Made by a program: the position numbers and the translations under genes. Of a stretch of DNA of 34,796 nucleotides, positions 140-27,576 are shown piece after piece (position 1 is the first letter of the stretch; every line of letters begins with the position of its first letter). The stretch lies in IMG/VR virus record IMGVR_UViG_3300042360_000143, positions 1 to 34,796 of that record, one strand, 5' to 3'. The stretch is from a virus. Lineage: Duplodnaviria > Caudoviricetes. A model generated the notes under the pieces. It saw nothing but the letters and a program-made list of their open reading frames with translations. It searched no databases and was not told the origin of the DNA.

Positions 140-724
140 ATGGCTACTCAAGTACTGCTCAAGAACGTAACGCTTGCCTTCCCCGCACTGGGCGAACCGC
201 AGGCATTCGGCGAAGGCGAACCGGCATACGGTGCTAAGTTCCCCATCGAGCCTAACTCCGAAAATGCTAAGCTTATCGAAGACGCCATCAAGGCCGAGGC
301 GAAAGAGGCGTGGAAGGACAAGGCAGACAGCGTGCTGGCTATGCTCGTCGAAGACGGCAAAGTCGCGTACTCGCGCCGCGAGTATCGCTCGAAGAAGACC
401 GGCGAGCCTTACGCTGGCTTCGAAAAGACGTTCTACCTCGGCACCCGTAACGCGTCGGTTCAGCCGTCCGTATACGACCAGTACGGCGACCCTGTCGTCG
501 GCAAGGCCGAAATCACCCGCAAGGCGTTCAGCGGCGCGGTTGTGAATGCGTCTGTCGAAGTGTGGGCGCAGGACAACAAGTGGGGTCGGCGCATCAACTG
601 CTCGCTGCGCGGCATCATGCTGACCGGCGAAGGCCAAAGCTTCGGTGGCGGATCGAGCCCAGCATCTGCTGATGAGTTCGCGTCCTTCGCTAAGGCCAAG
701 GCAGACGCAGACGACGTCCTGTGA
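140..724 (+). CDS. DUF2815-family phage ssDNA-binding protein (T7 gp2.5-like)
   Basis: 194 aa with L.FPAL, SGAVVNAS, WAQDNKWGRRINCSLRGI, GEGQSFGGG and an acidic tail (ADADDVL); lies in the replication module. Confidence 0.85.
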   Translation: MATQVLLKNVTLAFPALGEPQAFGEGEPAYGAKFPIEPNSENAKLIEDAIKAEAKEAWKDKADSVLAMLVEDGKVAYSRREYRSKKTGEPYAGFEKTFYLGTRNASVQPSVYDQYGDPVVGKAEITRKAFSGAVVNASVEVWAQDNKWGRRINCSLRGIMLTGEGQSFGGGSSPASADEFASFAKAKADADDVL

Positions 725-975
725 GCATAATCGGCCACAACTCCAGCGAAGAGCAACTGCGCCTCTTAATCGAGCGTGTTGAGCGTCTGGAGGAAGAAGA
801 AAAGGGCATTCGCGATGACAAGAAGGATGTCTACAGCGAAGGCAAGGCCCTCGGCTTCGACGTGAAGATCATGCGACAAATCGTCCGCCTGCGGAAGATG
901 ACTAAGGATGATCGGGCGGAGATGGAGGCCATACTGGAGACCTACAAAAAGGCTCTTGGCATGGATCTGCTCTAA
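721..975 (+). CDS. gapR: GapR / DUF2312 nucleoid-associated DNA-binding protein
   Basis: 84 aa; EQLRLLIERVERLEEEEKGIRDDKKDVYSEGKALGFDVKIMRQIVRLRK...LETYKKALGM is the DUF2312 signature; GTGA overlap with the SSB gene. Confidence 0.92.
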   Translation: MSIIGHNSSEEQLRLLIERVERLEEEEKGIRDDKKDVYSEGKALGFDVKIMRQIVRLRKMTKDDRAEMEAILETYKKALGMDLL

Positions 976-8118: not shown

Positions 8119-11100
8119 TTACCGCCTTATTGCTGCTAGGGGTTTAGCGGCGGCTTTACGTACCGCCAGCCCCGCCTTAGTGTTTGCGAGCCGCCGACCA
8201 GCGGCACCCGCGCCTGACATGCCGCCGTAGAACGCGGCATTGATAGGAGCCTCCTCGCGGATTGTGCGGGGCACATCGCGCATCGTCTTTGCCTGCCCTG
8301 CGGCATACAGCGCGCCTTGGCCCAAGTCGTCGGCCGCACCGGCAAGGAAGCGTGCCGCACGAGGTGCGCTGGCGAGGGCCCGCGCGCCGCCGAGGCTTGG
8401 CGCGGCCAGCGAGCCGCCAAGCATGCCCGCAGCCTCGAGGGCCATAGCAGTCTTTGGGTTAGCTTCGCCGTACCGCTCCTGCATCATGCGGATACGGTTG
8501 ACTTCGTTACGGTATGCGTTTGGGTCTTTGGCCGCGAGTGTGCGCAAGCGCGCCTCGATCTCGTCGCCGAAGCCGAAGGTCAGGCCTTGCCCGAACGTGC
8601 GAGCTGCGTTGGCGTAGTCGTAGCCTGCTTTTGGCTGGCCGCCCTTCTTAAGCCGCTGCACGTGGCCGCCACGGTACATGCCGAGTTCGGGGTTGTCGTA
8701 ATCCTCACCAGTGTCGGCGTAAAACATGCGGCCGGTGTCTGGCTCGAAGGTTACCTCACGGCCCGTAAGCTTGTCGACTACAATGCCCTCTGGGGACGCG
8801 TTGATGGCGTCGATCGACACCTCGTCGACCACAGGCGCTTGCGGCGCAGCTTGTGGTGCAGCTTGCTGGTACCGCGCCAAAAGATCCTCTGCCGAGGTCT
8901 GCTGTGGGTAGCCGTTAACTGCGGTAACCTGCACCTCATCTGGCTGGGAAGCCTGCTCGATGGCGTTCGCCGCGCCCACGACCCCGTATGCTGGCAGACG
9001 ATATTTCGACGCAAGGTTTGTAACAGTGTCGGCGAACGGCGCGGTGCGGCCTGCCAAGTTTTGCGCAAAGTCGGAGACCCCACCGGCAAAGCGCCCACCA
9101 GCGTACGCCGCCTCGCCGACAAGGCGCGGCGATGTCAAAGGCAACGCTATCAGTGACGTGCCGCCAGTCGGTATTGCGCCCATAACACCGCCGCCTGCCG
9201 TTACAGCACCGAGGCCGCGTGGCGTGGTAGCGTTTAACTGTTGACCGGCAAGTGACGGGAACATTGTGTCTGCTCCGGCTTCCTCAATGGTGCGGCCGAG
9301 ATCAGCGCGGCGTCCGTAATTGGTGTTTGCGTTGTTGCGCAAGATAGACTGTAACTTGCGGATGCTGGTATCGACGGGAGCGCCACTCTTCAACGAGAGC
9401 GAGCGCTCGATGTCGGCCAGCTTTTCGGCCGCAGTCTGGTACTCCTTCATGACCTTAAAATAGCCGGGTGCTTGCTTGCCTATGACGTCGCGCACTTCGC
9501 CATAAATGCCAGTCGCGATCGAAGCTGCGCGTCGATTGTTGTCGGTGGCAAAATCGTTGGACAGATCCCCGAGGCGTTGCTTCAGCCCGTCCATACCTTC
9601 TGGCGTGTGGAACTGCGCAGGGTCGCCTGCGGCCCAATCGTCCACGATGCCCTTGGCCTTTTCGTACACGGCAGCTGCAGACGGGTTCTTAACCTTGTCG
9701 CCCATGTACGCGCGGTCGCGCAACTTGCCCAGTCGGTCGTAGATGGGCTGGAATTCGAGAATAGTCTTGTCCTTGGCAACATCGACCATGCCGTTGCGGT
9801 ATGCCTCCGAGGCATCCTTGCGCATGTTGCCGACGGCCTCGCGCGCCTGCGCGAGAATGTCTTCCATGTCGCCGCCGCCACGCATGTTTTCGACGAAGGC
9901 CTCGCCCTTAGTGCCGCCTGCCTTACCGGCGCGAACCGCCTCTTTGACGGCTTCGGTGCCAGCGCCAGTCGTGACGCCGAGGACGTTTGCGCCGACTTCG
10001 CCGGTCGCTTTTGAGACGATGTTGCCGAGTTGAACAGGCATTTTTGCGACGCGTGTGGCCAAGCGTACCGGGTCGAGTAGTTTGCTTAACTCGGTGGCCT
10101 TCGCAACCTTACCCACCGCGCCGAGGCCTCCAGCAACCGTGCTGGCGTCCATCAGGATCTCGGCGGGGCGTTCGGCAAGCGCCTCAAGGAAACCTTGCTC
10201 GGTGCCGTACTGATTGGCGTAATGCTCGCCGATGGCGGCGATGGTTTCGCCGTCCGTGACGCCGATAATATCGCCCGCCACTTTGCCCATAAACTGCGCG
10301 GTCTCGGGCAGGTTGACGGTCAGGGCCTTGCCCGTCTCGGCGAAGGTCTCAAGCGCGCTGTATGGAAGGTTGACGAGGCCACGCGCAGACGCGCCGAGTA
10401 GGCCCATGTCTTCCTTAACCTCTTTATCCACCAGATCATAGCTAAAGCCGCCCCAACCGACGTCCTTGTTCATGTTGTCGACGGTGGTCTTGCCTTGGAC
10501 AAGCGCGTCGGCCATGAAGGCCTCGTCCGTTGGCACGCCAGCCTTTATCGCGCCGTCCATAACAACGGCGGCGTAAGTTTCGGGGGTCAGTTTCTTTTGG
10601 TCGTACAGCGCTCGAATGCGGTCTTCCGTCTCCTGCGGGAGGCGATAGCCCTTGACTTCGTTTGGCGCTAGTTCGCGGCGGATTGAAGCTTCTACCTCGT
10701 CCACGCCGCGCGGCTTAACACCGAGTGCTACGAGTTCTGAAGGCAATTTCCCCTCGGCCATGCCCGAAAGGAGCATGTCAAGCATCGCGTACTTGCCCTC
10801 GATAGCTATGTCACTGTCGCCAGCTTCAGGAATGTAGGCCTTGAAGACCTCCATTTCCTTGTCACTGTCGCCTTCTTTTGCGGACTGGGCTACGAGAGGA
10901 CGGATAAGGGGCAAGATGGCTGCGTTGGTTTTAGTAAATCTTTCAAACTGCGGTATGGCAGGGATTATGCCGCCAAGGCTCGGCTTGTCAAAGTACTCCC
11001 CGTAACCGAAAGCGCGGGACGCTGGGTTGCCTTTAATGTCATTCTTGTACAACTGTATGCTGTTCAGCATCTGCGCGCGCACGACGGCAGCGCGAGACTG

Positions 11101-11364
11101 CGCGCCTTTCGTTTTGGCTTCGAGTGCGACTTCAGTTGCGCTCTTGGGTGGGCCTTCCCTAGCTTCACGCTCCGCCTTGTCAGCATTAGCTTCCGCCGTT
11201 CGCGCGTCTGCTTTTGCTTTGCGGATGTCGTCTGCCATAGTCGCTCCGGTGAGAGCGATGTCCTGACCGCGCTTGATGCCTTCCTGCGACGTCTTGGTCC
11301 CTTCAGGGCTGCTGCTCTCGGCGGCCTTAGCCGCTTTGAGGTCTTTTGACCAAAAATCTGCCAT
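8119..11364 (-). CDS. Large internal virion (DNA ejection) protein
   Basis: 1081 aa, helical and Ala/Gly-rich; AGGAG RBS; TSPRLVGEAAY and GQGLTFGFGDEIEA motifs typical of podovirus ejection proteins; position after the nozzle gene. Confidence 0.7.
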   Translation of the reverse strand: MADFWSKDLKAAKAAESSSPEGTKTSQEGIKRGQDIALTGATMADDIRKAKADARTAEANADKAEREAREGPPKSATEVALEAKTKGAQSRAAVVRAQMLNSIQLYKNDIKGNPASRAFGYGEYFDKPSLGGIIPAIPQFERFTKTNAAILPLIRPLVAQSAKEGDSDKEMEVFKAYIPEAGDSDIAIEGKYAMLDMLLSGMAEGKLPSELVALGVKPRGVDEVEASIRRELAPNEVKGYRLPQETEDRIRALYDQKKLTPETYAAVVMDGAIKAGVPTDEAFMADALVQGKTTVDNMNKDVGWGGFSYDLVDKEVKEDMGLLGASARGLVNLPYSALETFAETGKALTVNLPETAQFMGKVAGDIIGVTDGETIAAIGEHYANQYGTEQGFLEALAERPAEILMDASTVAGGLGAVGKVAKATELSKLLDPVRLATRVAKMPVQLGNIVSKATGEVGANVLGVTTGAGTEAVKEAVRAGKAGGTKGEAFVENMRGGGDMEDILAQAREAVGNMRKDASEAYRNGMVDVAKDKTILEFQPIYDRLGKLRDRAYMGDKVKNPSAAAVYEKAKGIVDDWAAGDPAQFHTPEGMDGLKQRLGDLSNDFATDNNRRAASIATGIYGEVRDVIGKQAPGYFKVMKEYQTAAEKLADIERSLSLKSGAPVDTSIRKLQSILRNNANTNYGRRADLGRTIEEAGADTMFPSLAGQQLNATTPRGLGAVTAGGGVMGAIPTGGTSLIALPLTSPRLVGEAAYAGGRFAGGVSDFAQNLAGRTAPFADTVTNLASKYRLPAYGVVGAANAIEQASQPDEVQVTAVNGYPQQTSAEDLLARYQQAAPQAAPQAPVVDEVSIDAINASPEGIVVDKLTGREVTFEPDTGRMFYADTGEDYDNPELGMYRGGHVQRLKKGGQPKAGYDYANAARTFGQGLTFGFGDEIEARLRTLAAKDPNAYRNEVNRIRMMQERYGEANPKTAMALEAAGMLGGSLAAPSLGGARALASAPRAARFLAGAADDLGQGALYAAGQAKTMRDVPRTIREEAPINAAFYGGMSGAGAAGRRLANTKAGLAVRKAAAKPLAAIRR

Positions 11365-11381: not shown

Positions 11382-12038
11382 TTATTGTTTCGGGATAACT
11401 TTACCGGCATCTGGGCCGGAAGGCACTACGTAATACTCACCAAGGGGGATCGCCTCGTATTCGGCCCTATTCTTCGGGCGGTGCACTTCGTTCGGTATTT
11501 CACGGACGGCCCCCTTTGCGTCGAGGTCGTATCTGAACGGCGCTTTAGTGCTTTTCTTAAACATCGGCGCTGCCGTCTTCACGAGGTCCGCCGCAGTCTG
11601 CGCACGCTTGACGCCGTAGCCGCCAGTTGTCTCCATGTATTGGTCCTGTAGCGCAGCCAGTTGCGCGTCGCGCTGCTCGCGGGCCTTGCGCTCGGCCTCA
11701 GATATGTCGCTGAAAGCGCCGGAGATCTTGCCTACAGTGCCTGCAAAACCGCGATAGTCCCTCGGGGCCAGAAGCGCCTTGGACAGCATGAAGAGCTGCT
11801 CGGACTGCGTCGGGCCTTGGTTGCGCTCTTTGATGCGAGCCTCACCAGCCTCAAAACGCTTCTTGGCGCTATCTTCTTGCTGGGCCAGTGCGCGCATTTG
11901 CTGCCCGTACAGTGACTGCAAGAGGCCCGGCAGCTTCGCTTGGTCGCCAAGTTGCGCGAAGTCGATGTCGCCTTTAGCAGCCAAGTCGGCCATTGACTGT
12001 GCTCGGTCGTCGGCTTCCGTGTCGTCCTCGTACATCAT
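11382..12038 (-). CDS. Putative internal virion protein (coiled coil)
   Basis: 218 aa, coupled by TAATG to the upstream gene; charged helical stretches; within the ejection cluster. Confidence 0.6.
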   Translation of the reverse strand: MMYEDDTEADDRAQSMADLAAKGDIDFAQLGDQAKLPGLLQSLYGQQMRALAQQEDSAKKRFEAGEARIKERNQGPTQSEQLFMLSKALLAPRDYRGFAGTVGKISGAFSDISEAERKAREQRDAQLAALQDQYMETTGGYGVKRAQTAADLVKTAAPMFKKSTKAPFRYDLDAKGAVREIPNEVHRPKNRAEYEAIPLGEYYVVPSGPDAGKVIPKQ

Positions 12039-13108
12039 TAAACTCCCAACAGCTTGCTGAGCGCTGAGCCAGACTGCGCGTTACCCAATATGCCGCCAAG
12101 AGCCGCCAGCGCGCCGCCGACTGTCTCGGCTGTGCTTGGTGGTAGCTTCTCTTGGTAGCCGAGTGGCACGATGCCTTCTTCCTTGCTTGCCTTTGGTACG
12201 CCGCCTGCGACGCCACCGAACGTCTGCAGCATAGCATTGATCTGCTCTTGCGGATAGCCCTGCTGACGCAGGAAGTCGCTGTATGCGACGTCGAGGTTCT
12301 TCTGCGCCTGACCCTGCTGTGTCGCGCCGACTTGCTGCAGTGCGCCCGCGCCGGTGAGGCCGAGGTTCTGCGCCTGCGCGCCAAGTTCGCCAAGCTGTCC
12401 TGCGCCAGCAAGCTGACGCGACAGATCCTGCCCGCCGAGGCTGCCTGCCGTCGAGGCGAGTGCCGCTTGGCGCGACAGGTCTGTGCCCGCAAGGCCTGCG
12501 GCCTGCGTGTAGCCGGATTGGAGCGCTTCAGTCTGCTTGCCGAGGATGTCGGCGCTGGTGTCGCGAACGGCACGCGCGGTGTCGGTCAGCATCCCCGATG
12601 GAGTGCCGCTGCCGTTGCGGCCACCGAAGCCGAGCTGGCCCGCTTGGATGTAGCGGCCCTCGATCTGCGGCATGATGTTCTCGGTAAGGTTGCGTGTGCC
12701 CAACTCGCCGATGCGGTTGACGACAGCCTCATTGTACGGGTTCATGTACTGGTTGATGTTGGCGACGCTGGTCTGGCCTGCCGCGCCGAGGTACGGCTGC
12801 GCTACGTTAAGGCCGCCCGGCGCGTTGATCGCGCCCTGCGTGGCCTGCGTCGCGGCGTTCAGCGCGGGCTGGTAGGCCGTGGCCGCTTGGCCGGTCATGC
12901 CGAAGCCTTGCTGCATCGTTGGCGAGAACTCGGCTACGCGCGGCCCTTGGTACGTCGGCAATGGCTGCGCGGCGAGCGCCTGCTGATTGGACAGCAACTG
13001 CATGGCGTAGTTCGTGTACCAGTCGGGAAGCACAGTCTCGCTGGTGAGCGACTTAAACGTCGAGCCCGTGGGCAGCTGCCCGTTATTGAGAAAGTCGGTA
13101 AGCGCCAT
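12038..13108 (-). CDS. Internal virion (pilot/ejection) protein
   Basis: 356 aa rich in Q/A/G; QYMNPY and GFGG motifs; C-terminal glycine-zipper helix VGGALAALGGILG. Confidence 0.7.
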   Translation of the reverse strand: MALTDFLNNGQLPTGSTFKSLTSETVLPDWYTNYAMQLLSNQQALAAQPLPTYQGPRVAEFSPTMQQGFGMTGQAATAYQPALNAATQATQGAINAPGGLNVAQPYLGAAGQTSVANINQYMNPYNEAVVNRIGELGTRNLTENIMPQIEGRYIQAGQLGFGGRNGSGTPSGMLTDTARAVRDTSADILGKQTEALQSGYTQAAGLAGTDLSRQAALASTAGSLGGQDLSRQLAGAGQLGELGAQAQNLGLTGAGALQQVGATQQGQAQKNLDVAYSDFLRQQGYPQEQINAMLQTFGGVAGGVPKASKEEGIVPLGYQEKLPPSTAETVGGALAALGGILGNAQSGSALSKLLGV

Positions 13109-15765
13109 TATGCTTTTCCTCCGGCCAAGTAATGCTCTGGCCTCTTTGCGTTATCACTGAATTTGCCGCGAGCAAGCTTCTTGCCCTTCTGCTTGCGGAC
13201 TTTTACGCGGAAGCTGTCGAGCAGCTTCGCGCCTGCCTTGTTCGATCCGTTGCCGAGGAGGGCCACAGTCTCCGCGTCGATGACGTACTCGCCGTCGGAC
13301 AGGAGCGCGGGGATCTTGTCGTCGCGACCGTCACCGGCACCCTCGACGGCAAAGCCGCCACGCGCAAAGCGCATGTCGTCGACTTCAGGGGCGTACATCG
13401 ACGGGCCTCTAGGCTCCTCCGGTATTGGCGTCGTGATCGGCTGCGGCAACGCAACCGGCGGCGTGGCTACGCGCATTGGCTGCGGCGCAAATGCGTCCTC
13501 GGCGGTTGAGCCTTCATAGCCGGTGTACGCGCGGCTGGTGTTCGGCGCGCCTTGTGTGGCGTAATCGAAGAAGCTCTGCTCTGGGCCGTAGCCGTAGCGG
13601 TAGTAGTCTTGCGGGCTGCGCATGCCTTGGCTTGCGAGTGTGGACGCAGGGAGCGCACCGCCGCCGACGCCGCCCTGCAGGGTCGATGCGGGCAGTTGCT
13701 TGCTGAAGAGCGAGCTAAGGCCGCCCATGCCTGCGGGTATGGTGCCGGTAGAGCCGCCGCCCTTGCCGCCGCCGCCCAAACCGCCAAGCAAGCTGGATGC
13801 AAGACCGGCGAGGCGCAGGTAGTCGGCGATGTCTTTGGCGGTGAGCTTTTTATCGGCCTCGGCGGGCTGCGTCATATCCGGCAAAGGCTTCTCAACGCCC
13901 CATAAAACTGGCGGTGTAGTAGTCTGCCGCCCAGTGACTTTAATAAGGGGCTCTTCGGCTGGCCCGTTAACCGCACGCAGTACTTCCGGCGACAGCGCGC
14001 CGTCGGGGATGGTTACATTTGGCGAAAGTGGATTTCGGAAGCGATTGCCTTCCGCCACAATCTCACCGGTAGCGGTGTCCACCCCGTCAATCACGGAGCT
14101 AAGTGGCCCGCGAACGTCGCTGGTTGGGATAGATATGTTTGGCGAAACCGCGTCGAGGCGCTCTCCCGTTACCTTGATGATGTCTTCGGCGGGGGTTTCC
14201 GCTGCGGGAGGTTGCTCAACCGGCGGCTGAACGACCTCGTTAACAACCTCCGGCGGAAGACCGCTTGGGATGTTTACGAATGGTGCAAGCGTAATTTCGC
14301 GGCCAGTCACCGTTGCTGCGGGGGGTTCTTCCTGTGCGACGGGTTCGGTTGCGGGCTGCTCCGCACGGAACATCTGGTCGAAGGCCGACACCGGTCCGGT
14401 AGGCGCGCCGAATACGTTTCCGACGTCCACGCCGGCCAGATTGCCGAACTTGCCGCCAATGACTTTGAGGCCGTCGTACGGATCTTGCACTTTGGGTGGA
14501 GCTGGTTGCTGAGTGCCGCTTGGTGCGCCGCTGAACGGTACCGCTATAGAAGGCGCGGTGTACCCAGTCACAGTAGCCATGACGTTAGGGTCAACGGCAC
14601 CCCCGCCGCCGGTGCCTGTAGAAGGCGCGGCACCTTGGCCTATACCTAAACTTTCCTGAATGCCCGGCGCGGCATACGCAAGAGCGCCGGAGGCAGCGCC
14701 GCCAAGGAGCGAGTTCTTCAGGCTCTGTCCGGTGGCCAAGCCACCTACGGTCGCGCCGATGCCGGTGCCAAGTGGTTTAGCCAAATTGCCTAAATCACCT
14801 ATTGCTGGTATCTTAGGTATTAGTGCGCCCCCAGCGGCAGTAAGGCCACCTAATGCGGCACCTTTAAGGACATTCTGGCCTTTAAGCGCAGAACTTGCCC
14901 CACCTGTGAGCGCCCCAAAAGCAAGCTGACCCCCAAGAGTTTTAGCAAAATTAGCGCCAAGCAAAGCTGCGTTAACACCCGGTATAGCCATCATCGCCAA
15001 TGGCAGCACGGTACCCGCCACATTGGCGATTTGGCCCAGCGTGCTCTTGTTCTTCTTCTCGTACGCGACGGTCGAATAGTTGCCAGTCGGATCTGCGGTC
15101 TGGATGCTGTAGTTCGCCTTGCGACCAAACTGGTTCGTCAAGCCCTGACCCAATTCAGTTGCCTTGCGCGCGGCGTCGAAGCCGGTGCCTTCGAACACGA
15201 TCTGGTTGGTGCGATGGTCCACAAGGCGCACCGGCTGATCAGCCCGCACCGCGAAGGTGTTGCCGCCCGTCTGCGACGTGGGGTTGCCTTTGTTAGATAA
15301 CGGCGCGCCGATATACTGAAGATTAGGGTCGGGTTGATATATGCCGCCCATCGGGCCGCCACCGAAGTTCGAGGCGAAGTTTAACCCGCTCAAGTCCAAG
15401 CCAGCCAAGCCACTAAAGTCAAACGTGCTAGGGTCGAATGGCACCTCGGCAGGCGCGGCCTCTTGCGTCATCGGCTCCACGGCAGGCTCGTACTGCGGCT
15501 CGGCGGGCGGAAGCAGCATGCCGCCGCCTGTGTCGTACGGCAGCTCGCCATAGTTGCCCATGTCGTACATCATAGGCTGCTCGACAGGCATATACTGCTC
15601 GAGGGGTGGGGTATACTGGTACGGCTCGCTGTAGCCGCGCGTGTCACCGTCGCCGTAGCCGCCCATGTCGTACATCATAGGCTCGCCGTATTGCACACGT
15701 CCGCCTACGGCGTAGCGCGGCACAGACGTCCGCAGGTAGTTACTGAAGCCGGGGATGTAGTTCAT
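13108..15765 (-). CDS. Putative internal virion protein with glycine-zipper region, ~40-aa repeats and C-terminal FARGG..DKIPALLSDGEYV domain
   Basis: Start reassigned to ATG 15765 (ATGA overlap), giving 885 aa. The C-terminal GG..GDGRDDKIPALLSDGEYV motif is the type also seen in tape-measure/ejection proteins. Confidence 0.7.
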   Translation of the reverse strand: MNYIPGFSNYLRTSVPRYAVGGRVQYGEPMMYDMGGYGDGDTRGYSEPYQYTPPLEQYMPVEQPMMYDMGNYGELPYDTGGGMLLPPAEPQYEPAVEPMTQEAAPAEVPFDPSTFDFSGLAGLDLSGLNFASNFGGGPMGGIYQPDPNLQYIGAPLSNKGNPTSQTGGNTFAVRADQPVRLVDHRTNQIVFEGTGFDAARKATELGQGLTNQFGRKANYSIQTADPTGNYSTVAYEKKNKSTLGQIANVAGTVLPLAMMAIPGVNAALLGANFAKTLGGQLAFGALTGGASSALKGQNVLKGAALGGLTAAGGALIPKIPAIGDLGNLAKPLGTGIGATVGGLATGQSLKNSLLGGAASGALAYAAPGIQESLGIGQGAAPSTGTGGGGAVDPNVMATVTGYTAPSIAVPFSGAPSGTQQPAPPKVQDPYDGLKVIGGKFGNLAGVDVGNVFGAPTGPVSAFDQMFRAEQPATEPVAQEEPPAATVTGREITLAPFVNIPSGLPPEVVNEVVQPPVEQPPAAETPAEDIIKVTGERLDAVSPNISIPTSDVRGPLSSVIDGVDTATGEIVAEGNRFRNPLSPNVTIPDGALSPEVLRAVNGPAEEPLIKVTGRQTTTPPVLWGVEKPLPDMTQPAEADKKLTAKDIADYLRLAGLASSLLGGLGGGGKGGGSTGTIPAGMGGLSSLFSKQLPASTLQGGVGGGALPASTLASQGMRSPQDYYRYGYGPEQSFFDYATQGAPNTSRAYTGYEGSTAEDAFAPQPMRVATPPVALPQPITTPIPEEPRGPSMYAPEVDDMRFARGGFAVEGAGDGRDDKIPALLSDGEYVIDAETVALLGNGSNKAGAKLLDSFRVKVRKQKGKKLARGKFSDNAKRPEHYLAGGKA
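15556..15683. repeat. 23-bp perfect direct repeat within CDS
   Basis: gcccatgtcgtacatcataggct at 15556-15578 and 15661-15683, encoding PMMYDMG twice. Confidence 0.9.
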
Positions 15766-15998
15766 GAGCTTGTACCTTCGAGCATCGGATATACACGCAT
15801 TCCCCACTCACGCCAATCCGAGAACTGATATGGATCGGGAATAATTTGCTGCGTAAATGGCGAGGCACGCAACAGCCCTATAGCCCAGCCTTGCCACGCG
15901 GCCTCTTCGGGCGGTGACCCGAACGACCACGCGTCGTTGACGGACAATACGACCGAGGAGGCCCAGTCTTGCCAAGTCATGCCGCGAGGGTCGATCAT
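15762..15998 (-). CDS. Small Trp-rich conserved virion-cluster protein
   Basis: 78 aa; WQDWA/WQGWA/PDPYQFSDWREW; ATGA overlaps on both sides. Confidence 0.75.
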   Translation of the reverse strand: MIDPRGMTWQDWASSVVLSVNDAWSFGSPPEEAAWQGWAIGLLRASPFTQQIIPDPYQFSDWREWGMRVYPMLEGTSS

Positions 15999-17770
15999 CC
16001 CAGTGTCGTCCCGTCGCCGGACTGGACGTGTGCAAGCACAAGGCCCATCTGATAGTCGCCGCCGAGAGTGTTGCTCTCGAAGCGGAAGCGCAGCTCGCGG
16101 CGCTGTGTCTTCAGGAAGACGACCTGCTCCTGCGGCGTCTGCGGGTTCTCAACGAATGTCATGATTATGCCGTTGACTTCAGGCGCACGAGCGTTGGCGC
16201 GGCCCATAACCTGCACCGTCATGTCGCCGCTCTGCACGAAGTCTGGCTCAAGCATTAGTACCTGCAGCGACTTGTTAATCTGCGACGTGGCAGGCAGGGA
16301 CAAGTCGGCAGTCTCGAAGAAGGACTGTATGGGGTTGAGCGTCAGGCCGTCAATCTCGTCGGTGCCGACCTCGTGAACCCAGAACTTGTACGGATTGTCG
16401 AACGTCATGTCGAACGTGGCCGCGCTACCAGAGCCGCCAGTCACGCTGACAGGGTTGACTGGGATCTCCGTGTACTGGCCCGCGTTGGTGATGGTAACGC
16501 CGGTGATGGCCCCGCTGCCGCCGACAGTTGAGACCGTCAACTCCGTGCTAATTTGGCCCAGACCCCCAACGAGGGTGAGCGTGTCGCCGACAGTGTAGCC
16601 GGTGCCGCCCGCAAATACTCCAGCCCCAAAGGCCGCAGCCTCCTGCGGCTCAACGCCAGACAGGAGCGGCTTGCGGAAGACGGCGGGGAAGAGGCCCGCA
16701 CCGCGTCCGCCATTGGGCAGCTCGGTGTCGTACCACGTATTCTCGCGCACGTTGTAGATGACGGCGTGGTTCGGCTCGATGCTGTCGCCGAACGGGAAGC
16801 ACCACCAGATCTCGCCGAAGCGCGGAACCTTATACGCGAACACCTTCTGGCGCTGCGCGTAGTTTAGGTTGTCGAAGAAGAAGTTGATGTTCATGTTGTT
16901 TTCGACTTCGCGCACGACGCCGTTGAACGTCAGGAAGCGATCGGTGCCAATCCAGTAGAAAATGCCGTCGTACTCGATGACGGACGCGGCCGACAGGATC
17001 GAGGACTGTGTGCTGATTGTGTCGAACTGGAACACCGCCGTGCCGCCGACATAGGTGCCGCGAATGAGGCTGTCGGCTGACCAGAAGAGGCCCGACGGGC
17101 TGTTGCCCGGTCCGCCGCGCAGCGGCATGCCTTTGACGACCTTCTGGCCGGTGATGTACGCATTGCCTGCGCCAGAGCTGGTAAAGTCTGCGGGGTCGTT
17201 CGGCACGGACCACGCCGCGTAGCCGTCGTTGCCGAAGGCAAACGTGTACGGCGGCAGCGTGACGACGCCGCCAGTGACGTTGAAGTTTGCGGGCACCGTG
17301 GTGACTTGCGTCAGGGCAGACGTACCGAGGAGGTCGCCAACGAAGAGCGCGCCGCCGTCGCTGTTGCATATGCAGTTCAGGTTCGGCGCGACTTGCGCGA
17401 CGATCTGGTTGCCGTTCGTCGTGTCGTACGCCGTGGCGAACTGCCAAAGGTTCCCTGCGTCTGGGGTGAAGCCCGACGCCGGTGTGCGGTCGGTAATGAC
17501 GCTCGTGTTGTACGTGCCGTCGATGAAGAAGCGTTCAAGGCGGTTGGCCGATCCGGCGTGGACGTAGGTCAACAGATCCTGCGTATATTCTGCGAGCGTG
17601 CGCGGCAGGCCGCGCAGGAACTTGTTGATCGAGCGGTAGCCACCAATTTTACGCGGCAGGCCGCGCTGGAAACGGACCCACTGCCCGTCAACGTACTGGT
17701 CGCCCTCGAACTTCGTCCCATCCCGCTTGATGCCGGGCTTGGACATTATCTGTACGATCTGTTCAGCCAT
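15995..17770 (-). CDS. Tail nozzle / DNA stabilisation protein (P22 gp10 / T7 gp12-like)
   Basis: 591 aa beta-rich; PGIKRDGT, WVRFQRGLPRKIGG, FGEIWWCFP, YNVRENTWY, RELRFRFES; position before the ejection genes. Confidence 0.75.
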   Translation of the reverse strand: MAEQIVQIMSKPGIKRDGTKFEGDQYVDGQWVRFQRGLPRKIGGYRSINKFLRGLPRTLAEYTQDLLTYVHAGSANRLERFFIDGTYNTSVITDRTPASGFTPDAGNLWQFATAYDTTNGNQIVAQVAPNLNCICNSDGGALFVGDLLGTSALTQVTTVPANFNVTGGVVTLPPYTFAFGNDGYAAWSVPNDPADFTSSGAGNAYITGQKVVKGMPLRGGPGNSPSGLFWSADSLIRGTYVGGTAVFQFDTISTQSSILSAASVIEYDGIFYWIGTDRFLTFNGVVREVENNMNINFFFDNLNYAQRQKVFAYKVPRFGEIWWCFPFGDSIEPNHAVIYNVRENTWYDTELPNGGRGAGLFPAVFRKPLLSGVEPQEAAAFGAGVFAGGTGYTVGDTLTLVGGLGQISTELTVSTVGGSGAITGVTITNAGQYTEIPVNPVSVTGGSGSAATFDMTFDNPYKFWVHEVGTDEIDGLTLNPIQSFFETADLSLPATSQINKSLQVLMLEPDFVQSGDMTVQVMGRANARAPEVNGIIMTFVENPQTPQEQVVFLKTQRRELRFRFESNTLGGDYQMGLVLAHVQSGDGTTLG

Positions 17771-18333
17771 TACAGGGCGTCCGCGCTAAGGTCTACAGTC
17801 CACGTATCAAGCACCGTGGCAGTGCCGGTGCGGCGAACTTGGAATGTTAGTTGGGCATACACGGAGTTTCCTGATCCAGAAATATCTACGAACCAAGCGG
17901 GGTTGCCGGATGTCGCTACCCAACTGCCAATCGTGCCAACAGGAGGGTTACCGGTGTAAGTAGCGTAAACTTCGTAGTTTCCACCTTGGCTGGTGGGCGT
18001 GCACCACTGCTGTACGTACATGTAAGAGCCGCCGTTATACTGTTCGTATACCTGCCCGTTGGCAGCACCGGCACCAAAAATAGCATATCCTGCTTCAGAA
18101 TAACCCCCAGCACTGGCGTTTACCGAGTGGTCGTTAAAGTCCACGACCACACTGCTCTTACCGTAGAAGTTGGTCGGCACGATGATAGCGCCAGACGCGA
18201 CGCCCGCCAGTGTGCGGACATCGGTGTCGTTCAGCGAAACCGTGGCGGTAGCGGATTTACCCAACTCAAGGTTGATGGACTGCCCCGCAGTGCTGCCACC
18301 CAAGCTGATTGGGCCTGAAGAGTTGAGCGTCAT
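17770..18333 (-). CDS. Putative fibre-tip adhesin / receptor-binding protein
   Basis: 187 aa; N-terminal MTLNSSGPISL...ELG...NFYGKS module usually found right after S74-processed fibres; aromatic-rich beta C-domain. Confidence 0.55.
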   Translation of the reverse strand: MTLNSSGPISLGGSTAGQSINLELGKSATATVSLNDTDVRTLAGVASGAIIVPTNFYGKSSVVVDFNDHSVNASAGGYSEAGYAIFGAGAANGQVYEQYNGGSYMYVQQWCTPTSQGGNYEVYATYTGNPPVGTIGSWVATSGNPAWFVDISGSGNSVYAQLTFQVRRTGTATVLDTWTVDLSADAL

Positions 18334-21300
18334 TATTTAGCTCCCCGTAGCTCGTCCAGTTCTGCCTTTAACTCTTTGATGGCCGCGAATGCCACGGCGA
18401 CCAGTTTCTCGTAATCAACAGCCAGTGTGCCATCGTCGCGGGTGCGAACGGCCAATGGGAACATTGCCTCCACGTCCTGCGCGATGACGCCGAAGTCGCT
18501 CTTGCGGACGAAGTAGTCGTCCTCGCCGCCATGCTCTGCGATGTAGGCATCGGTCCAGTCGAAGGTCTTGCCGCCAACTGTAGTCACGATGGTGAGGGCG
18601 TTCTCGATTGGACGCACGTTCTCTTTCAGGCGCGCATCGGACGAGTAGAACGCCGTGACGTTGTTGGTCGCACGGATCTCGCCCGCAGTGCCTGAACCAG
18701 CGGTGCCGACGCCGAGGCTGTTGACCTGATAGTTGTTGCTTGTGTTCAGCGCGTTGGCTGTGGTCGCCGTTGTGGCAGTCGTGGCTGACGTCGCGCTCGT
18801 GGCTGACGTTGCGCTGGTCGCCGATGTGGCCGTCGCCGCGTTGCCGCTGATGTTGATGCCCCAAGTGCCGCTTGCGCCCGAACCTCCACGCGATGGGACA
18901 TCAAGCGCGGTTTGCGCACCGCTTGCGGTGCTGGAGCCTGTGCCGCCGTTGACGACGGCGACGGTGCCGGTAAGCTTAGAGGCCGCCAGCGACGCGATGA
19001 AAGACGGATCAGAATAGCTGGCCGTCGTCACGACGCCGTTGGGCACGCTCGCGGCGGTGCCGCTGATGCTAATGCCCCACGTGCCGCTTGCGCCCGAGCC
19101 TGTTGTGGATGGCACACCGAGTGCAGACTGCGCAGTGGCTTGTGTGGTTCCGCCGGTGCCGCCGTTGCCGATCGCAAGCGTGCCGCCAAGAGTAAGCGTG
19201 CCGGACGTTGTGATAGGACCGCCGGTCAGGGTCATTCCAGTCGTGCCGCCGGAGCCGCTGACACTGGTGACAGTACCCGCGCTGCCTGTGGCAGAGATAG
19301 TGATCGAACCAGCGCCGTTGGAGATGCTGATGCCAGAACCGGCAGTAAGCGTCGCCTTCGCGAGTGTATTGCCAGTGCTGTTCCCGATGAGCAGCTGCCC
19401 GTTGGTGTACGTCGTCTGGCCGGTGCCGCCGTTGGTGACGGCCACAGTGCCAGTGACGTTGGCTGCGTTGCCGCTAATGTCGCCAGTTATCTTCGTGCCA
19501 GCGAGTGCCGTGATCCACGTCGGGTTGGAGTAGGAGCCAGTCGTCACGACGCCGTTCGTCGCCGTCGCTGCGTTACCGCTGACGTTAATCGCCCACGTCC
19601 CGCTGGCGTCGCCGCCGGTGCGCGTCGGCACATCGAGTGCGGTGCGTGCGAGGGCTGCCGTAGTCGCGCCAGTACCGCCGTTGGCGATGGCGACCGTGCC
19701 GGTGACGTTGGCGGCGCTGCCGCCTATGTTACCCGTGATCTTTGAGCCCGCGAGTGATGTTATCCAAGCCGGATCTGCGTACGAGCCCGTTGTGACGACG
19801 CCATTCGTGGCGGTGCCCGCGTTTCCTGTGACGTTGATGCCCCACGTCCCACTTGCGCCAGATCCAGTGCTCGAGGGGACGTCGAGTGCAGAGCGTGCAC
19901 CAGACGCAGTAGTGGACCCTGTACCGCCGTTGGCGATGGCGAGTGTGCCCGCGAGGGTGATGGTGCCCGCGCCGGTGACAGGTCCGCCGGAAGTGGTCAG
20001 GCCTGTCGTACCGCCGCTGACGTCTACTGACGTTACGGAGCCGCCGCCAGCTGTGGACGATATGGTGATACCGCCCGCGCTGTTCGTGACAACGATACCG
20101 GAACCGGCACTGAGGGTCGAGAGGTTGTAGCCTGTGCCGTTGCCGATCAGAAGCTGCCCGTTTGTGGGCGTGGTCGCAACACCGGTGCCGCCCTGTGCGA
20201 CAGTGAGCGCGGTGGTCAAGCCCGTGAGAGAGGTGATGTCGGAGTTCGCACCTGCGGCTGCCGCGCCGAGCGTGAGGCGTGCGCCGGAGGCACTGGTCGC
20301 GCCAGTGCCCCCAGACGCTATCGCGAGCGTTCCGCCGAGTGTCAGCGTGCCCGAGGTTGTGACCGGCGAGCCGGTGAAGGATAGGCCGGTTGTGCCGCCC
20401 GATGCGGCCACCGACGTTACAGTACCAGCACCGGCGGTGGACGTGATGGTGATGCCGCCCGCGCTGTTCGTGATGCTGATGCCCGAGCCAGCCGTCAGGG
20501 TCGCCTTCGTGAGCGTGTTGCCTGTGCTGTTACCGATGAGCAACTGCCCGTCGGTGTATGTAGTTTGACCCGTTCCGCCGTTGGCGACAGGCAGAGCAGT
20601 GCCCGACAGCGACACGGCAAGCGTGCCGGACGTCGTGATCGGCGAGCCTGTTACGGACAGGAAGGACGGTACTGTCAGCGCGACGCTGGTAACCGAGCCT
20701 GAGCCCGTGCCGACGCCCACGCCGTTGATGAAGAGGCCCGTGGCATTGATGGTGCCCGCGCCCTGCGCGCCAGCCGTAGGCGCGCCGATCTGGATGCCTG
20801 CCGCGTTGGTGAGCGCAGTGATGTCTGCGTTCGAGCCGCTTGCCGCAGCGCCGAGGTTCGTGCGTGCGCCGCCAGCGGTCGTGGAGCCGGTGCCGCCCTG
20901 CGCGACGGTCAATGCCGTCGTGAGGCCCGTGATTGACGTGATGTCGGAGTTCGCGCCTGCGGCTGCCGCCGAGATGGTTGAGCGCGCACTCGCGGCAGTC
21001 GCCGCAGTGAAGAGCGCAGCGCCGATGCCCGTCGCGCCCAAGTTGGTGCGCGCCGAGGTTGGGTTGTTTGCGCCGGTGCCGCCCTGCAATACAGGTAAGA
21101 TGCCCGCGAAGGGCGCGGATGTAGTTGCCGAGATGATGTCCGTACCGTCGCAGTACAGGATCGCGGTCTCGCCCTGAGTAACCAGTGTGGCTGCGCCGCT
21201 GGCGGTCTTGATGCCGAGCGTGAACGCGCCGGTCGTGGCGTTGTTTACCCAATACTGTTGGACCGTTGCGGGCACGACGATGTTGGCGTTGGACGTCAGC

Positions 21301-22133
21301 GTGCCGTTGAACTTGTACGCGATGCGGTTCAGCTCAGATCCAGAGAGCGTGTACGTGCCGCCGGTGACGGCGATGGTCGTGTAGTCAAAGGCGAAGACGG
21401 CCTGCTGTCCGAGGCCGATGGTGTACCACTGGACGCCGTCGCTGACGACCACGGCGCTGTCGCCCGGCTGCAGGCGGAGTGTGGACGACGCGTTGATAAG
21501 CTCCGTGCCGGACGGGTCGATGGTCAAGTCGCCTTGGCCGCCGTTGCGGACCTGCACGAACCAGCCGTCGCCAGCGCCGACGGCCGTAGGCAAGTTCAAC
21601 GTGCCGAGGCCGCCGTTCCAGACAAAGACCTTAGCGCGGTCAGGGGCCGTGAGGCTGTAGGGCGTGATGGAGAAGTCAACGACTTCGTAATTCTGTGCGA
21701 GTTCCGAGCCGTCTGCGATCAGACCGGCACCGGCGAGGGCCGCAGCTTGTGCCTGCGCCACGGCAGCGCCGTAGCGGAATGTGCGCCAAATACCGCCGAC
21801 GGTGGTGTTGTTGATGAGGTACGCCTGCCACTGCTCGCCTGCGCCAATGCTCAGAATTGCGTTGCCTGCGGCGTTGTCGATGGTGATGGTATCGGGGCCG
21901 AGGTTGTTGAACAGGATTGTCTGGCCGACGCTGACGGCAGTCGCGTCAGGAAGCGTGACGGTGAACGGCCCTGTCGGTGTGATGTCGATGATGCGCGCGA
22001 CGACGCTGTCGCCCTCGCCTGCGCCAACTGGCCAGTTAAGCGCGATGTCGTCGGTGAGCGCCAGCGAGAGGTAGGAAACGTCTGCGGGGTATATCGTCGT
22101 GCCGCCGAAGACTTGAGTGAAACTGCCAGACAT
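18333..22133 (-). CDS. Tail fibre protein with C-terminal peptidase S74 intramolecular chaperone
   Basis: 1266 aa; many (L/V)A(I/V)ANGGTG repeats, SAT tandem repeats; SSDARLKENV...GVIAQDV...VDYEKL...AIKEL. Confidence 0.9.
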   Translation of the reverse strand: MSGSFTQVFGGTTIYPADVSYLSLALTDDIALNWPVGAGEGDSVVARIIDITPTGPFTVTLPDATAVSVGQTILFNNLGPDTITIDNAAGNAILSIGAGEQWQAYLINNTTVGGIWRTFRYGAAVAQAQAAALAGAGLIADGSELAQNYEVVDFSITPYSLTAPDRAKVFVWNGGLGTLNLPTAVGAGDGWFVQVRNGGQGDLTIDPSGTELINASSTLRLQPGDSAVVVSDGVQWYTIGLGQQAVFAFDYTTIAVTGGTYTLSGSELNRIAYKFNGTLTSNANIVVPATVQQYWVNNATTGAFTLGIKTASGAATLVTQGETAILYCDGTDIISATTSAPFAGILPVLQGGTGANNPTSARTNLGATGIGAALFTAATAASARSTISAAAAGANSDITSITGLTTALTVAQGGTGSTTAGGARTNLGAAASGSNADITALTNAAGIQIGAPTAGAQGAGTINATGLFINGVGVGTGSGSVTSVALTVPSFLSVTGSPITTSGTLAVSLSGTALPVANGGTGQTTYTDGQLLIGNSTGNTLTKATLTAGSGISITNSAGGITITSTAGAGTVTSVAASGGTTGLSFTGSPVTTSGTLTLGGTLAIASGGTGATSASGARLTLGAAAAGANSDITSLTGLTTALTVAQGGTGVATTPTNGQLLIGNGTGYNLSTLSAGSGIVVTNSAGGITISSTAGGGSVTSVDVSGGTTGLTTSGGPVTGAGTITLAGTLAIANGGTGSTTASGARSALDVPSSTGSGASGTWGINVTGNAGTATNGVVTTGSYADPAWITSLAGSKITGNIGGSAANVTGTVAIANGGTGATTAALARTALDVPTRTGGDASGTWAINVSGNAATATNGVVTTGSYSNPTWITALAGTKITGDISGNAANVTGTVAVTNGGTGQTTYTNGQLLIGNSTGNTLAKATLTAGSGISISNGAGSITISATGSAGTVTSVSGSGGTTGMTLTGGPITTSGTLTLGGTLAIGNGGTGGTTQATAQSALGVPSTTGSGASGTWGISISGTAASVPNGVVTTASYSDPSFIASLAASKLTGTVAVVNGGTGSSTASGAQTALDVPSRGGSGASGTWGINISGNAATATSATSATSATSATSATTATTATTANALNTSNNYQVNSLGVGTAGSGTAGEIRATNNVTAFYSSDARLKENVRPIENALTIVTTVGGKTFDWTDAYIAEHGGEDDYFVRKSDFGVIAQDVEAMFPLAVRTRDDGTLAVDYEKLVAVAFAAIKELKAELDELRGAK

Positions 22134-22135
22134 CT

Positions 22136-22789
22136 TTAAGCCTCCTTACGAGTGGCGCTGCGGTCGAGTATCTTGGCGAGGTCTTCGCCATTCAACATGC
22201 CAGCCGCACGGTCGTACATATTTTGCCATACAGGGATGCGCTCGTCGTTCTTCAGGAATGGCGTCGCCTCTAGGAGGGTGGCATACAGAAGGATTTCGGG
22301 TGCGTTTTCGGTGAGCCAGTTTGTCTGCGCCTCCTCGTCGAGGAGCGGCGGCAGTTGGTAGTACAGGATCTCGATTGGGTAATCTACGTCGGGTGTCGGC
22401 GCGACGAGCCAGTGATTATAGTCATAGTCGCTGTAGAATATCGGTTGCGCGGTTTCGGTGGCGTCGGGCCAATAGCTGCGCAAATAATCGTAGCTGCGCG
22501 TGAACAGCGCCGTGCGGCTGTTGTTGTCTGCGCCGGTGCCGATAAACATCGACACGGTGTCGCGCCACCTGTCGGGCTTATCCACTACGGGATTGCCCGC
22601 AGATAGTTGCGCAGTGACGACGTTGATGAAGCCTTGGATCTTCAGCTCGCGGGCGATGCGACGCTCGGCGAGGTTGATAAGGCGCGGGATCTGCTCGAAG
22701 ACGATTGGGTCGGAGGCAAGCGTATCCCCACGCTCAAGGTAGCGCTGCACGTCCTGCTTTAGAGATGTAAACGTCATCGCAGTGGCCAT
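22136..22789 (-). CDS. Head-tail adaptor (tail tubular protein A / SU10 adaptor-like)
   Basis: 217 aa; IPRLINLAERRIAREL, PTPD..Y.IE..YY, TNWLTENAPEILLYATLLEA.PFLK.DER. Confidence 0.8.
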   Translation of the reverse strand: MATAMTFTSLKQDVQRYLERGDTLASDPIVFEQIPRLINLAERRIARELKIQGFINVVTAQLSAGNPVVDKPDRWRDTVSMFIGTGADNNSRTALFTRSYDYLRSYWPDATETAQPIFYSDYDYNHWLVAPTPDVDYPIEILYYQLPPLLDEEAQTNWLTENAPEILLYATLLEATPFLKNDERIPVWQNMYDRAAGMLNGEDLAKILDRSATRKEA

Positions 22790-24183: not shown

Positions 24184-24701
24184 TCCTTTCCGGCCAGCGG
24201 GTTCGCCAGCGTCTTTTGAATACGTGCAGCGGTCTCGGTCTCAAGTTCCTTGATCCGACGCTGTTGGTCCTTATCCTGCTCGCGCAGTTGGTCTATGATA
24301 GCGCGCTGCATCGCCATGTTCTGCGCGTCACTGTTCCGAACGCTGCTCGACACCGCATCGACCGTCTGGCGTGTACCGCTGACGCTGCTGGAGATCGAGC
24401 CGGTCATGTAATTCAGGGCTTCGCTGTTAATCTTGGTCAGACGCTCGACGCTCGTGACGCGCTCATCCAACACCGAAATGCGGCCCTCGATGCCAGACAG
24501 GTCGGGCGGCACATATGCCGCTGTGACTTCCTGCATGGTCAGGAATTGCTGGTACACTTGGAAGCCAGCCCACAGCCCGCCGATAACTGTTGAAAAGGCA
24601 GCAAAGATAATGGCTATTTTGCCGCTGCTTAAGCCGCCAATGTTAAAACTGAAGCCGCTCTCGTCGAACGAGACCTTTGGCTCCTCATCTGTACTGCTCA
24701 T
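24180..24701 (-). CDS. Single-TM coiled-coil membrane protein
   Basis: 173 aa; IAIIFAAFSTVIGGLWAGF TM, long heptad region, C-terminal LANPLA. Confidence 0.75.
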   Translation of the reverse strand: MSSTDEEPKVSFDESGFSFNIGGLSSGKIAIIFAAFSTVIGGLWAGFQVYQQFLTMQEVTAAYVPPDLSGIEGRISVLDERVTSVERLTKINSEALNYMTGSISSSVSGTRQTVDAVSSSVRNSDAQNMAMQRAIIDQLREQDKDQQRRIKELETETAARIQKTLANPLAGKE

Positions 24702-26335: not shown

Positions 26336-27352
26336 TTATTTCTCGGCAGGGCGAAGCTCGACGTTCTCGGTCCACGCGGCGCGGGCTTCGTCGCCGATTA
26401 AACCCATGAACGGGCAGGGCGTACCGGCCATTTCCATCGCGCCGAATACGCGGGGGTCTTGGCACAGGAGGCTCACGGCGGCGACGCGCATGCCCATGTC
26501 GTACAGGGTCTTCGACAGCTTCATCCGCTCGCAGTTCTGATCGCGAACGGTGCGGCCTGCCGACAGGCCGATTATCTGCGTCTGCACTGCGCCAGACTGG
26601 CCGGTGGTGCAGAGGTCTTGGCTGTAGGACATCATGGACGGCGCGATGGCGCTGGGCGGTGGCGACTTGATGTTCTGGTCGATAACCTGACGATTGACGC
26701 TCTCGCTGTAGCTCTTGCTGTCGGACACGTTGACGTTGTTGTTCTGGTTGACGTTGCGGTTATCGCTGCTTGTCGTCTGGTTGATCGTGCTGGTGTCGTT
26801 GTTCGTGTTGTTGGTGTTTACGGTGCTGTTGACCGTCTGGTTGACGGTGCTGTTGCTGACATCCGTATTGAAATTGCGGTTTGTCGCCTCGGATGTGCTG
26901 GCGTTGGTGTTCTGGTTGATGTTCGTCATCGTGCCAGAATTGATGTTCGTGTTCTGGTTGATGTTCGTCATCGTCCCAGTGTTTTGGTTTATGTTGGTGT
27001 TGGTCGACGAACTGACGTTGTTATTGTTGTTCGTGTTCAGCGACGTGCTCGTGCTGGCATTCACGTTGTTGTTCGTGTTGACCGACGTGCTGGTGCTATC
27101 GTTGGTGTTGAAGTTTGTGTTGGTGTTCACCGACGTGCTGGCAGACGTGCTGTTGTTGTTATTCGTGTTCGTTGACGTGCTGGTGGAATTGTTGTTGTTC
27201 GTGTTGGTGGACGTGTTGGTGTTGTCCGACGTGCTGGTTGTCGTCGTGGTGTAGACATACTCCGTCGGAGCAACCGACACAGGCGCGGTCTGTGCGAGCA
27301 CCATGCTACACCAGCCAAGAGAGACAAGAACCCAATACCTTTTAATCATCAC
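26336..27352 (-). CDS. Exported protein with Thr/Asn/Ser 14-aa repeats and C-terminal four-Cys domain
   Basis: Sec signal MMIKRYWVLVSLGWCSMVLA/Q; ~180 aa of T/N/S repeats; PPPSAIAP..DLC..NCERMKLSK.L...GM.VAAVSLLCQD.RV..AM.MAGTPCP. Confidence 0.85.
   Translation of the reverse strand: MMIKRYWVLVSLGWCSMVLAQTAPVSVAPTEYVYTTTTTSTSDNTNTSTNTNNNNSTSTSTNTNNNNSTSASTSVNTNTNFNTNDSTSTSVNTNNNVNASTSTSLNTNNNNNVSSSTNTNINQNTGTMTNINQNTNINSGTMTNINQNTNASTSEATNRNFNTDVSNSTVNQTVNSTVNTNNTNNDTSTINQTTSSDNRNVNQNNNVNVSDSKSYSESVNRQVIDQNIKSPPPSAIAPSMMSYSQDLCTTGQSGAVQTQIIGLSAGRTVRDQNCERMKLSKTLYDMGMRVAAVSLLCQDPRVFGAMEMAGTPCPFMGLIGDEARAAWTENVELRPAEK
26907..26974. repeat. 26-bp perfect direct repeat with 42-bp period
   Basis: gtgttctggttgatgttcgtcatcgt at 26907-26932 and 26949-26974, defining the 14-aa repeat unit. 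Confidence 0.9.
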
Positions 27353-27576
27353 CGATCCGCCTTGTTATCCAATTTATCCTCAATCCGACGAAGGTGGATC
27401 ATCACCTCCTTGAACCTCTCGTCAATGGTGTTGAACTTCTCATCGCCAAAGCCGAGACGCGCCTCGAGCAGCGTCAGCTTATTGGTGAGGTTCACCCAAA
27501 CAGTTATCAACGCCCCCACGAAAGTGAGGGCGGTGATAACAAAACCAAGGACGGTGAAGAGGGTTGCGGTGTCCAC
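27349..27576 (-). CDS. Small single-TM coiled-coil protein (holin-like)
   Basis: 75 aa; long N-terminal hydrophobic helix, then LRRIEDKLD coiled coil. Confidence 0.7.
   Translation of the reverse strand: MDTATLFTVLGFVITALTFVGALITVWVNLTNKLTLLEARLGFGDEKFNTIDERFKEVMIHLRRIEDKLDNKADR

Follow-up and report, generated by a model that had tools for sequence, protein, structure and literature searches.

TonB-box-like motifs in a probable podophage ejection protein and its family

TonB-dependent transporters (Plug family PF07715), such as FhuA and BtuB, carry a single TonB box close to their N-terminus, reading acidic-acidic-Ile-Val-Val-Thr-Gly/Ala-x-Arg/Lys after a linker of Ala, Pro and acidic residues. 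We compared these transporters and other TonB-linked systems with an 885-residue protein encoded at 13108..15765 on the minus strand of IMG/VR virus record IMGVR_UViG_3300042360_000143 (Duplodnaviria; Caudoviricetes), whose 34,796 nucleotides form the window analyzed here. The protein, probably an ejection protein of a podophage, shares with the transporters the box sequence, the linker that precedes it and a box style in keeping with the host family. It differs in lacking a signal peptide, plug or barrel, in relaxed positions +3 and +5 of the box, and in that the phage boxes are internal and number up to eight. No Plug or receptor family is found in it with Pfam or NCBIfam, and its structural model contains no barrel.

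T1 and phi80 are long-tailed phages. Their infection needs TonB and the proton motive force (PMC11658791), but the need arises at irreversible adsorption to FhuA, and no phage-encoded box is mentioned in the available part of that source. Among bacteriocins, the group B colicins, pyocin S2 and klebicin C carry their own TonB box in a disordered segment and are pulled by TonB-ExbBD (PMC12927319 and PMC8546555), and colicin B can drag single-stranded DNA in; a likeness to this behavior is proposed here for the phage protein. Bacteriocins have a single N-terminal box together with receptor-binding and toxin domains, and they pass through a host pore, whereas the phage boxes are many and internal and would arrive through the phage nozzle. 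No colicin domain was found in PHROG and Pfam scans of the window, and the neighbors of the gene are virion genes. The 885-residue protein is neither a bacteriocin nor a transporter, though its mode of action would resemble that of a TonB-dependent bacteriocin.

The ejection proteins of T7 (gp14-16) and P22 (gp7, gp20 and gp16) share with this locus a gene placed after the nozzle, hydrophobic helices and a cluster of large genes, but there is no match in sequence or fold, and gp14 is only a quarter as large as the 885-residue protein. The word TonB does not occur in the available text of a review of podophage ejection (PMC8954989). The closest cultured relatives of the window's phage are the Caulobacter phages RW, GB2A, RLK and KcrB. 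RW (proposed Riverwalkvirus) encodes an orthologue of the 885-residue protein, gp066 (gp066c), annotated as hypothetical or tape measure, which shares the N domain, Gly-rich helices and C-terminal region described below and contains five box-like strands by eye, two of them above 8 bits. The RW protein differs in its length of 580 residues and its Caulobacter-style boxes, four of the five having Pro at +6; the nozzles of the two phages are 60% identical and the next gene 56%. Neither receptor nor TonB data on RW occur in the available text of PMC11053796. The preliminary description knew of no phage system of this kind, and searches of open PMC and bioRxiv papers likewise found, among the papers listed, no phage protein with a TonB box of its own; the papers listed included work on T5 and FhuA, on transporters and ecology, on bacteriocins and on pesticin.

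TonB-box-like sites across the phage family

Host transporter genes were collected by their Plug family from alphaproteobacterial genomes, and their N-terminal motif was found without any phage sequence, giving box sets of 136 (mixed Alphaproteobacteria, 8 sites being dropped from the resulting profile) and 89 (the order of genome G300). No conclusion depends on the unpublished genomes G246 and G037. Of 7994 proteins scored, 322 belong to the phage family at E ≤ 0.001, and its C-terminal pattern occurs in about 1600 stored IMG/VR stretches; 262 family proteins were reduced to 63 representatives sharing less than 50% identity. The N domain is present in 38 of these and marks the clade with the most boxes, in which the host profile finds 64 sites of at least 8 bits as compared with 3.1 in shuffles, with at least one site in 30 proteins and at least two in 19. 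The nine proteins of a DTML-type clade have no sites and the 16 other representatives have six. A plain pattern count (88 of 121 proteins) gave 340 matches in linkers versus 71 in shuffled sequence, and 23 in 48,527 residues elsewhere. Per 1000 residues the family has 1.67 sites of 10 bits or more, whereas other phage proteins have 0-0.17 and the host background has 0.09.

The comparison was also made in reverse. Gly-rich composition dominated an initial motif search; with a local background, the motif learned from 37 phage linkers alone reads DEIVVTGSK (112 sites in 33 of the 37 proteins). When the positions of each transporter are ranked with this motif (about 650 positions, barrel strands included), the TonB box comes first in 113 of 136 and in 78 of 89 transporters, about one being expected by chance, and the mean column correlation is 0.82. 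Positions +2, +4 and +6 of the motif are kept while +3 and +5 are relaxed, which would be expected, judging by TonB structures, of a strand bound through one face. On the evidence of these sequence comparisons, we take the family to carry a real, selected TonB-box mimic.

Box spacing was measured in 22 proteins with at least three sites. The gaps between boxes have a median of 40 residues and a minimum of 19, with 66 of the 80 lying within 25-60 residues, and the coefficient of variation of the spacing is 0.20 as against 0.54 for random placement. These gaps are compatible with a ratchet because most are shorter than the roughly 50 residues (about 20 nm) that pulling on the BtuB box unfolds (PMC5413942). 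Within a protein the boxes are 38% identical and the flanks 13%, and in 113 close homologues of the 885-residue protein 55% of core positions are identical to it, as compared with 39% of spacer positions. Near-identical recent duplications account for 5 of 207 repeat pairs in some relatives. Copy number ranges from one to eight boxes per protein, and some 130 residues separate the N domain from the first site, which falls inside the Gly-rich helices or at their end.

The style of the boxes was also compared with the predicted host. Of 46 Caulobacteraceae boxes, 43 have Val, Ile or Leu directly ahead of the core, compared with 5 of 60 sphingomonad boxes. GapR genes, used as the host indicator, were found in 24 of the 30 phage records searched, and in a tree whose reference groups were Caulobacteraceae and sphingomonads only, eight phages (RW included) fall on the Caulobacteraceae side and 16 (the window's phage included) on the sphingomonad side, with support of 100/98. 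With sites located by a neutral core, and with two duplicates and three site-less proteins dropped, Val, Ile or Leu precedes 14 of 17 sites in seven Caulobacteraceae-side phages versus 5 of 40 in 13 sphingomonad-side phages; L090, on the sphingomonad side, shows the opposite style. Box style tracks the predicted host, being Caulobacter-type in RW and sphingomonad-type in the window's phage.

Several relatives show other arrangements. A sister clade (L058, L059, L060, L063, L066-L068 and L072) combines the same C-terminal region with a different N-terminal domain, which bears a DTMLAHINP motif, and lacks TonB-box-like sites. In the orthologue from Manatee Spring phage there is a single box-like site, which scores 9-12 bits with host profiles and 3.3 with the phage profile. 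In two orthologues (L050:10075-11994, minus strand, and L078:233-3220, plus strand) the linker is strikingly rich in Cys and of low complexity, and the C-terminal motif occurs twice; the abundant Cys may hint at a linker that binds metal or at an unusual use of codons.

The six motifs and the anatomy of the protein

The six peptides that the preliminary description placed between 13927 and 14580 are exact minus-strand translations, and their Val-to-Val spacings are 36, 51, 46, 39 and 39 residues, as it gave them. The best TonB-box match is motif 4, DIIKVTGER (14158..14184, minus strand, as are all motifs and domains of this protein), which scores 11.3 bits with the profile from the sphingomonad order, ranks first of 877 positions and lies at the 12th percentile of true boxes. 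Motif 5, GEIVAEGNR (14041..14067), follows with 7.1 bits, rank 2 and the 4th percentile, and aligned relatives read, among others, EEILVEARK and DDIVVSGKR. Motif 6, PLIKVTGRQ (13924..13950), has 2.5 bits and rank 4; DEIVVTGQR, one of the aligned counterparts in relatives, reaches 26 bits. The remaining three are weaker as host boxes: motif 2, DGLKVIGGK (14449..14475), is of the family type, with 14.6 bits in the phage profile and -4.1 in the host profile; motif 3, PAATVTGRE (14296..14322; -1.0 bits), is a degenerate variant whose aligned relatives include DIIKVTGQL and EAIVVSGNK; and motif 1, VMATVTGYT (14557..14583; -3.3 bits), is degenerate.

Together the six rank 1, 2, 4, 5, 11 and 12 of the 877 positions with the sphingomonad-order profile, two exceed 5 bits, and shuffles of the region give p = 0.003-0.03, this profile having been built after the mixed-profile result and the GapR match were known. 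With the mixed alphaproteobacterial profile (128 of the 136 boxes) the motifs reach at most 5.2 bits, none attains 6, and the best p values from shuffles are 0.05-0.09. Four of the six match the phage-family motif, the protein being part of the training set. The TonB-box likeness claimed for this array stands at the level of the family but in this copy extends, as host boxes, to motifs 4 and 5, and the proposed scoring against shuffled controls favors it with the order-level profile and gives a weak result with the mixed one. No clear DNA repeat over the boxes was found in a repeat search of the window. The array of this protein is a partly degenerate copy of the family array.

The length of 885 residues is counted from an ATG that agrees with homologue starts. 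An AlphaFold2 monomer model built from 61 sequences shows a small α/β N domain, unassigned to a family, at residues 141-240 (15046..15345), with a predicted local distance difference test score (pLDDT) of about 90-97 over residues 151-240. It is followed at residues 241-375 (14641..15045) by Gly-rich hydrophobic helices, with 21% Gly and eight charged residues, which are modeled over 242-372 with moderate confidence and are likely a membrane-inserting segment by analogy with T7 gp14 (PMC8954989). No N-terminal hydrophobic stretch or signal peptide is found, and the sole hydrophobic peak above 1.5 lies at residue 253. Residues 373-633 have pLDDT values nearly all below 50 and no secondary structure in the monomer model, to which a poor alignment may contribute; the repeats form no self-contained fold there, and the motif linker is predicted to be unfolded and accessible. 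A second helix (643-660 in the model) and then a Gly run occupy residues 641-670 (13756..13845), where YLR patterns are enriched, and the array at residues 395-614 lies between the Gly-rich helices and this helix.

The conserved basic C-terminal region (residues 796-885; 13111..13380) begins with a stretch resembling a tape measure protein repeat, and has PHROG tape-measure matches and a short match to tape measure gp16 (8ZDO, E 0.0047), a pattern that fits an internal virion protein without proving it. Its model is partly helical and of low confidence (pLDDT 59). DNA binding by this region was considered and is unsupported beyond the basic helix, the fold being poor. Foldseek gave no match in the PDB at E ≤ 0.001, the fold of the N domain included, and only uncharacterized homologues among viral models; scans with Pfam, NCBIfam and PHROG left the repeats without a named domain, and the box segments, searched as a profile, matched the PDB at chance level only. 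The acidic N-terminal region contains a direct repeat of 34 nucleotides (15545-15578 and 15650-15683, 91% identical) that encodes a repeated PMMYDMG.

Proposed role and its alternatives

We propose that the 885-residue protein is packaged in the virion and would be ejected through the phage nozzle N-terminus first, the N domain coming out ahead of the rest together with the Gly-rich helices. The helices would enter a membrane in the manner of T7 gp14, and the linker would follow. Because the protein has no signal peptide, the boxes would meet the periplasmic domain of TonB only after ejection. Each box is envisaged to add a strand to the TonB C-terminal domain, and TonB-ExbBD would grip successive boxes and pull the chain into the periplasm in the style of colicins, a spacing below one stroke allowing each pull to expose the next box. 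The pull would draw in roughly 270 C-terminal residues and a cargo, which may be other ejection proteins or the DNA end. That the boxes bind TonB in some role we consider likely; that TonB-ExbBD grips them one by one and pulls the ejected chain in is, in our estimate, an even prospect. The broader picture, in which a widespread group of freshwater podophages of Caulobacter and sphingomonads powers ejection through the Ton system with a host-tuned ladder of boxes set slightly less than a stroke apart and a second protein bearing one more handle, is offered tentatively.

Were this true, a virion protein with evenly spaced TonB boxes would provide phage entry with a new source of energy, and it would bear on the standing problem of how podophage ejection proteins transit the periplasm. 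It would also provide a natural substrate for probing processive TonB pulling, and the movement by TonB of chains far longer than one stroke is called "perplexing" in a 2026 review (PMC12927319). A cultured pair is at hand in phage RW and C. vibrioides CB15, and box style may help to predict the hosts of uncultured phages.

Several observations weigh against such a role. Four of the six motifs of this protein score below 3 bits, and six of the 37 family proteins have one site only and four have none. Lys at +3 and Pro at +6 (the latter as in the RW motifs), both common in phage motifs, occur in none of 225 host boxes, and Glu at +5, also common, in three; some colicin boxes may end in Pro. Tandem duplication also yields regular gaps, and synteny is the one line of evidence placing the protein in the virion. 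The host-style result uses GapR as a proxy for the host and includes one cultured phage only, whose GapR sits on a long branch; the phages compared are related, and a weak tree needs three label changes yet is compatible with one origin, so that p-values make this result look stronger than it is. According to PMC11658791, local secondary structure matters more for the activity of a box than its side chains do, which loosens any argument from sequence. Bacteriocins that exceed a stroke tenfold in length manage with a single box (PMC12927319), and an array is therefore not required for pulling.

The strongest alternative, though an unlikely one in our judgment, is a multivalent tether, in which several copies of the protein would together bind numerous TonB molecules anchored in the inner membrane, keeping that membrane beneath the nozzle or bringing it there while the DNA channel is assembled, with no processive pulling. 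The motif evidence applies to it equally, copy number is variable, and the first site lies beside or in the Gly-rich helices, where pulling would tug on the anchor. A spacing close to the stroke is not needed by a tether, though not forbidden, and energized TonB pulls bound boxes in the bacteriocin cases (PMC12927319).

Somewhat less probable is that the motif is a strand docking on a phage partner (the nozzle, another ejection protein or itself) in packaging or tube assembly, its likeness to the TonB box having arisen convergently, as an acidic-hydrophobic strand. The phage motif often has non-host residues, and ejection proteins refold through tape-like segments (PMC8954989), but a generic strand would not top-rank the TonB box in 83-88% of β-rich transporters, nor would it follow a family-specific host style.

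Two further possibilities we hold to be improbable to a similar degree. The boxes could be decoys that jam TonB after entry, against superinfection by TonB-dependent phages or against nutrient or toxin import. TonB-box peptides are reportedly pursued as TonB inhibitors and an array would raise avidity; however, the gene sits in a late structural operon, and without a signal peptide only the few copies carried by a virion would reach the periplasm, probably too few to titrate TonB. The partner could instead be TolA or another TonB-like transducer, for which Tol-dependent colicins and filamentous phages are a precedent, and alphaproteobacterial TolB N-termini are related strands, one scoring 10.1 bits. 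One of 27 parsed TolB N-termini (from 47 loci, sphingomonad-type loci being mostly missed and one of those scoring 3.7 bits) reaches 8 bits, compared with 72 of 89 transporters; the median scores are -4.8 and 13.9, and for 100-103 of 108 phage sites the fit to transporters is better than that to TolB. Finally, a chance pattern, or the functionless remnant of a transporter gene fragment that was once captured and then multiplied by tandem duplication, would accommodate the weak scores in this protein and the near-identical duplications in some relatives, but it is very improbable given boxes that stay alike while their flanks are nearly random, sites 20 times as frequent as in shuffles, the lack of a clear DNA repeat at the boxes of the window and no match to a Plug or receptor family.

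Gene order, host and neighboring genes

The virus record is a linear sequence of 34.8 kb with an estimated completeness of 61%. At least half of the sampled words of the gene occur in 19 of 24 listed sequencing runs, all 19 of them lake or freshwater metagenomes; an RNA run with only 0.06 of the words was not used. The late operon on the minus strand runs from the SU10-type adaptor (22136..22789; PF24175, E 7.6e-31) through a tail fiber gene, a 187-residue gene, the podophage nozzle (15995..17770; nozzle gp16, 8ZKK, E 2.7e-9) and a 78-residue gene to the gene of the 885-residue protein. It continues with a PHROG DNA ejection protein (12038..13108; phrog_4287, E 4e-12), which has no boxes and whose 98 homologues have no sites, and then with genes of 218, 1081 and 751 residues. 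Phage RW has the identical order of nozzle, small gene, orthologue of the 885-residue protein and ejection gene. The position after a short-tail adaptor and nozzle and beside further ejection genes, together with the predicted membrane-inserting helices without a signal peptide, argues for a probable podophage ejection protein, the first of the cluster and internal to the virion as judged by synteny with the nozzle and ejection genes, in agreement with the preliminary description.

The proposal of an alphaproteobacterial host is likewise supported. The GapR-like gene (721..975, plus strand; PF10073) groups with Sphingomonadales GapR; its best matches among 301 genomes searched are G152, G039 and G300, and among plasmids an Erythrobacter plasmid. 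The ExbB of G300 is 83% identical to a Sphingomonas protein (order Sphingomonadales), and G152 belongs to the same order as G300. Because the G152 and G300 matches fall in the sphingomonad order, the host is likely a sphingomonad. The names of metagenome-assembled genomes come from phyla with no relation to one another; these entries were taken for mis-binned phage contigs and rejected as hosts.

The 1081-residue protein (8119-11364), probably a second large ejection protein, has a single box-like motif, DEVQVTAVN (8914..8940, minus strand; 6.0 bits, rank 1 in that protein), and 8 of its 56 homologues have one site of at least 10 bits. Relatives of this protein (L003, L011, L013, L117, L132 and L135) have a box-like site near either protein end, some at 18-20 bits, such as EQITVTGTR, EEIVVTATE and PEIVVTAPR.

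A search of the window for transfer RNA genes found none. Tail-fiber genes at 18333-22133 and 28535-34675 (minus strand) encode 1266 and 2046 residues, each product ending in a Peptidase_S74 chaperone domain, and two long fiber genes suggest two receptor-binding proteins. Proteins of 338 and 546 residues (26336-27352 and 24685-26325, minus strand) both have signal-peptide-like starts, the first with a long Asn/Thr/Ser repeat (phrog_20531) and the second very acidic and without a family match. A small ferritin/Dps-like gene (27576-27938, minus strand; phrog_858, DUF5856) lies amid the structural genes.

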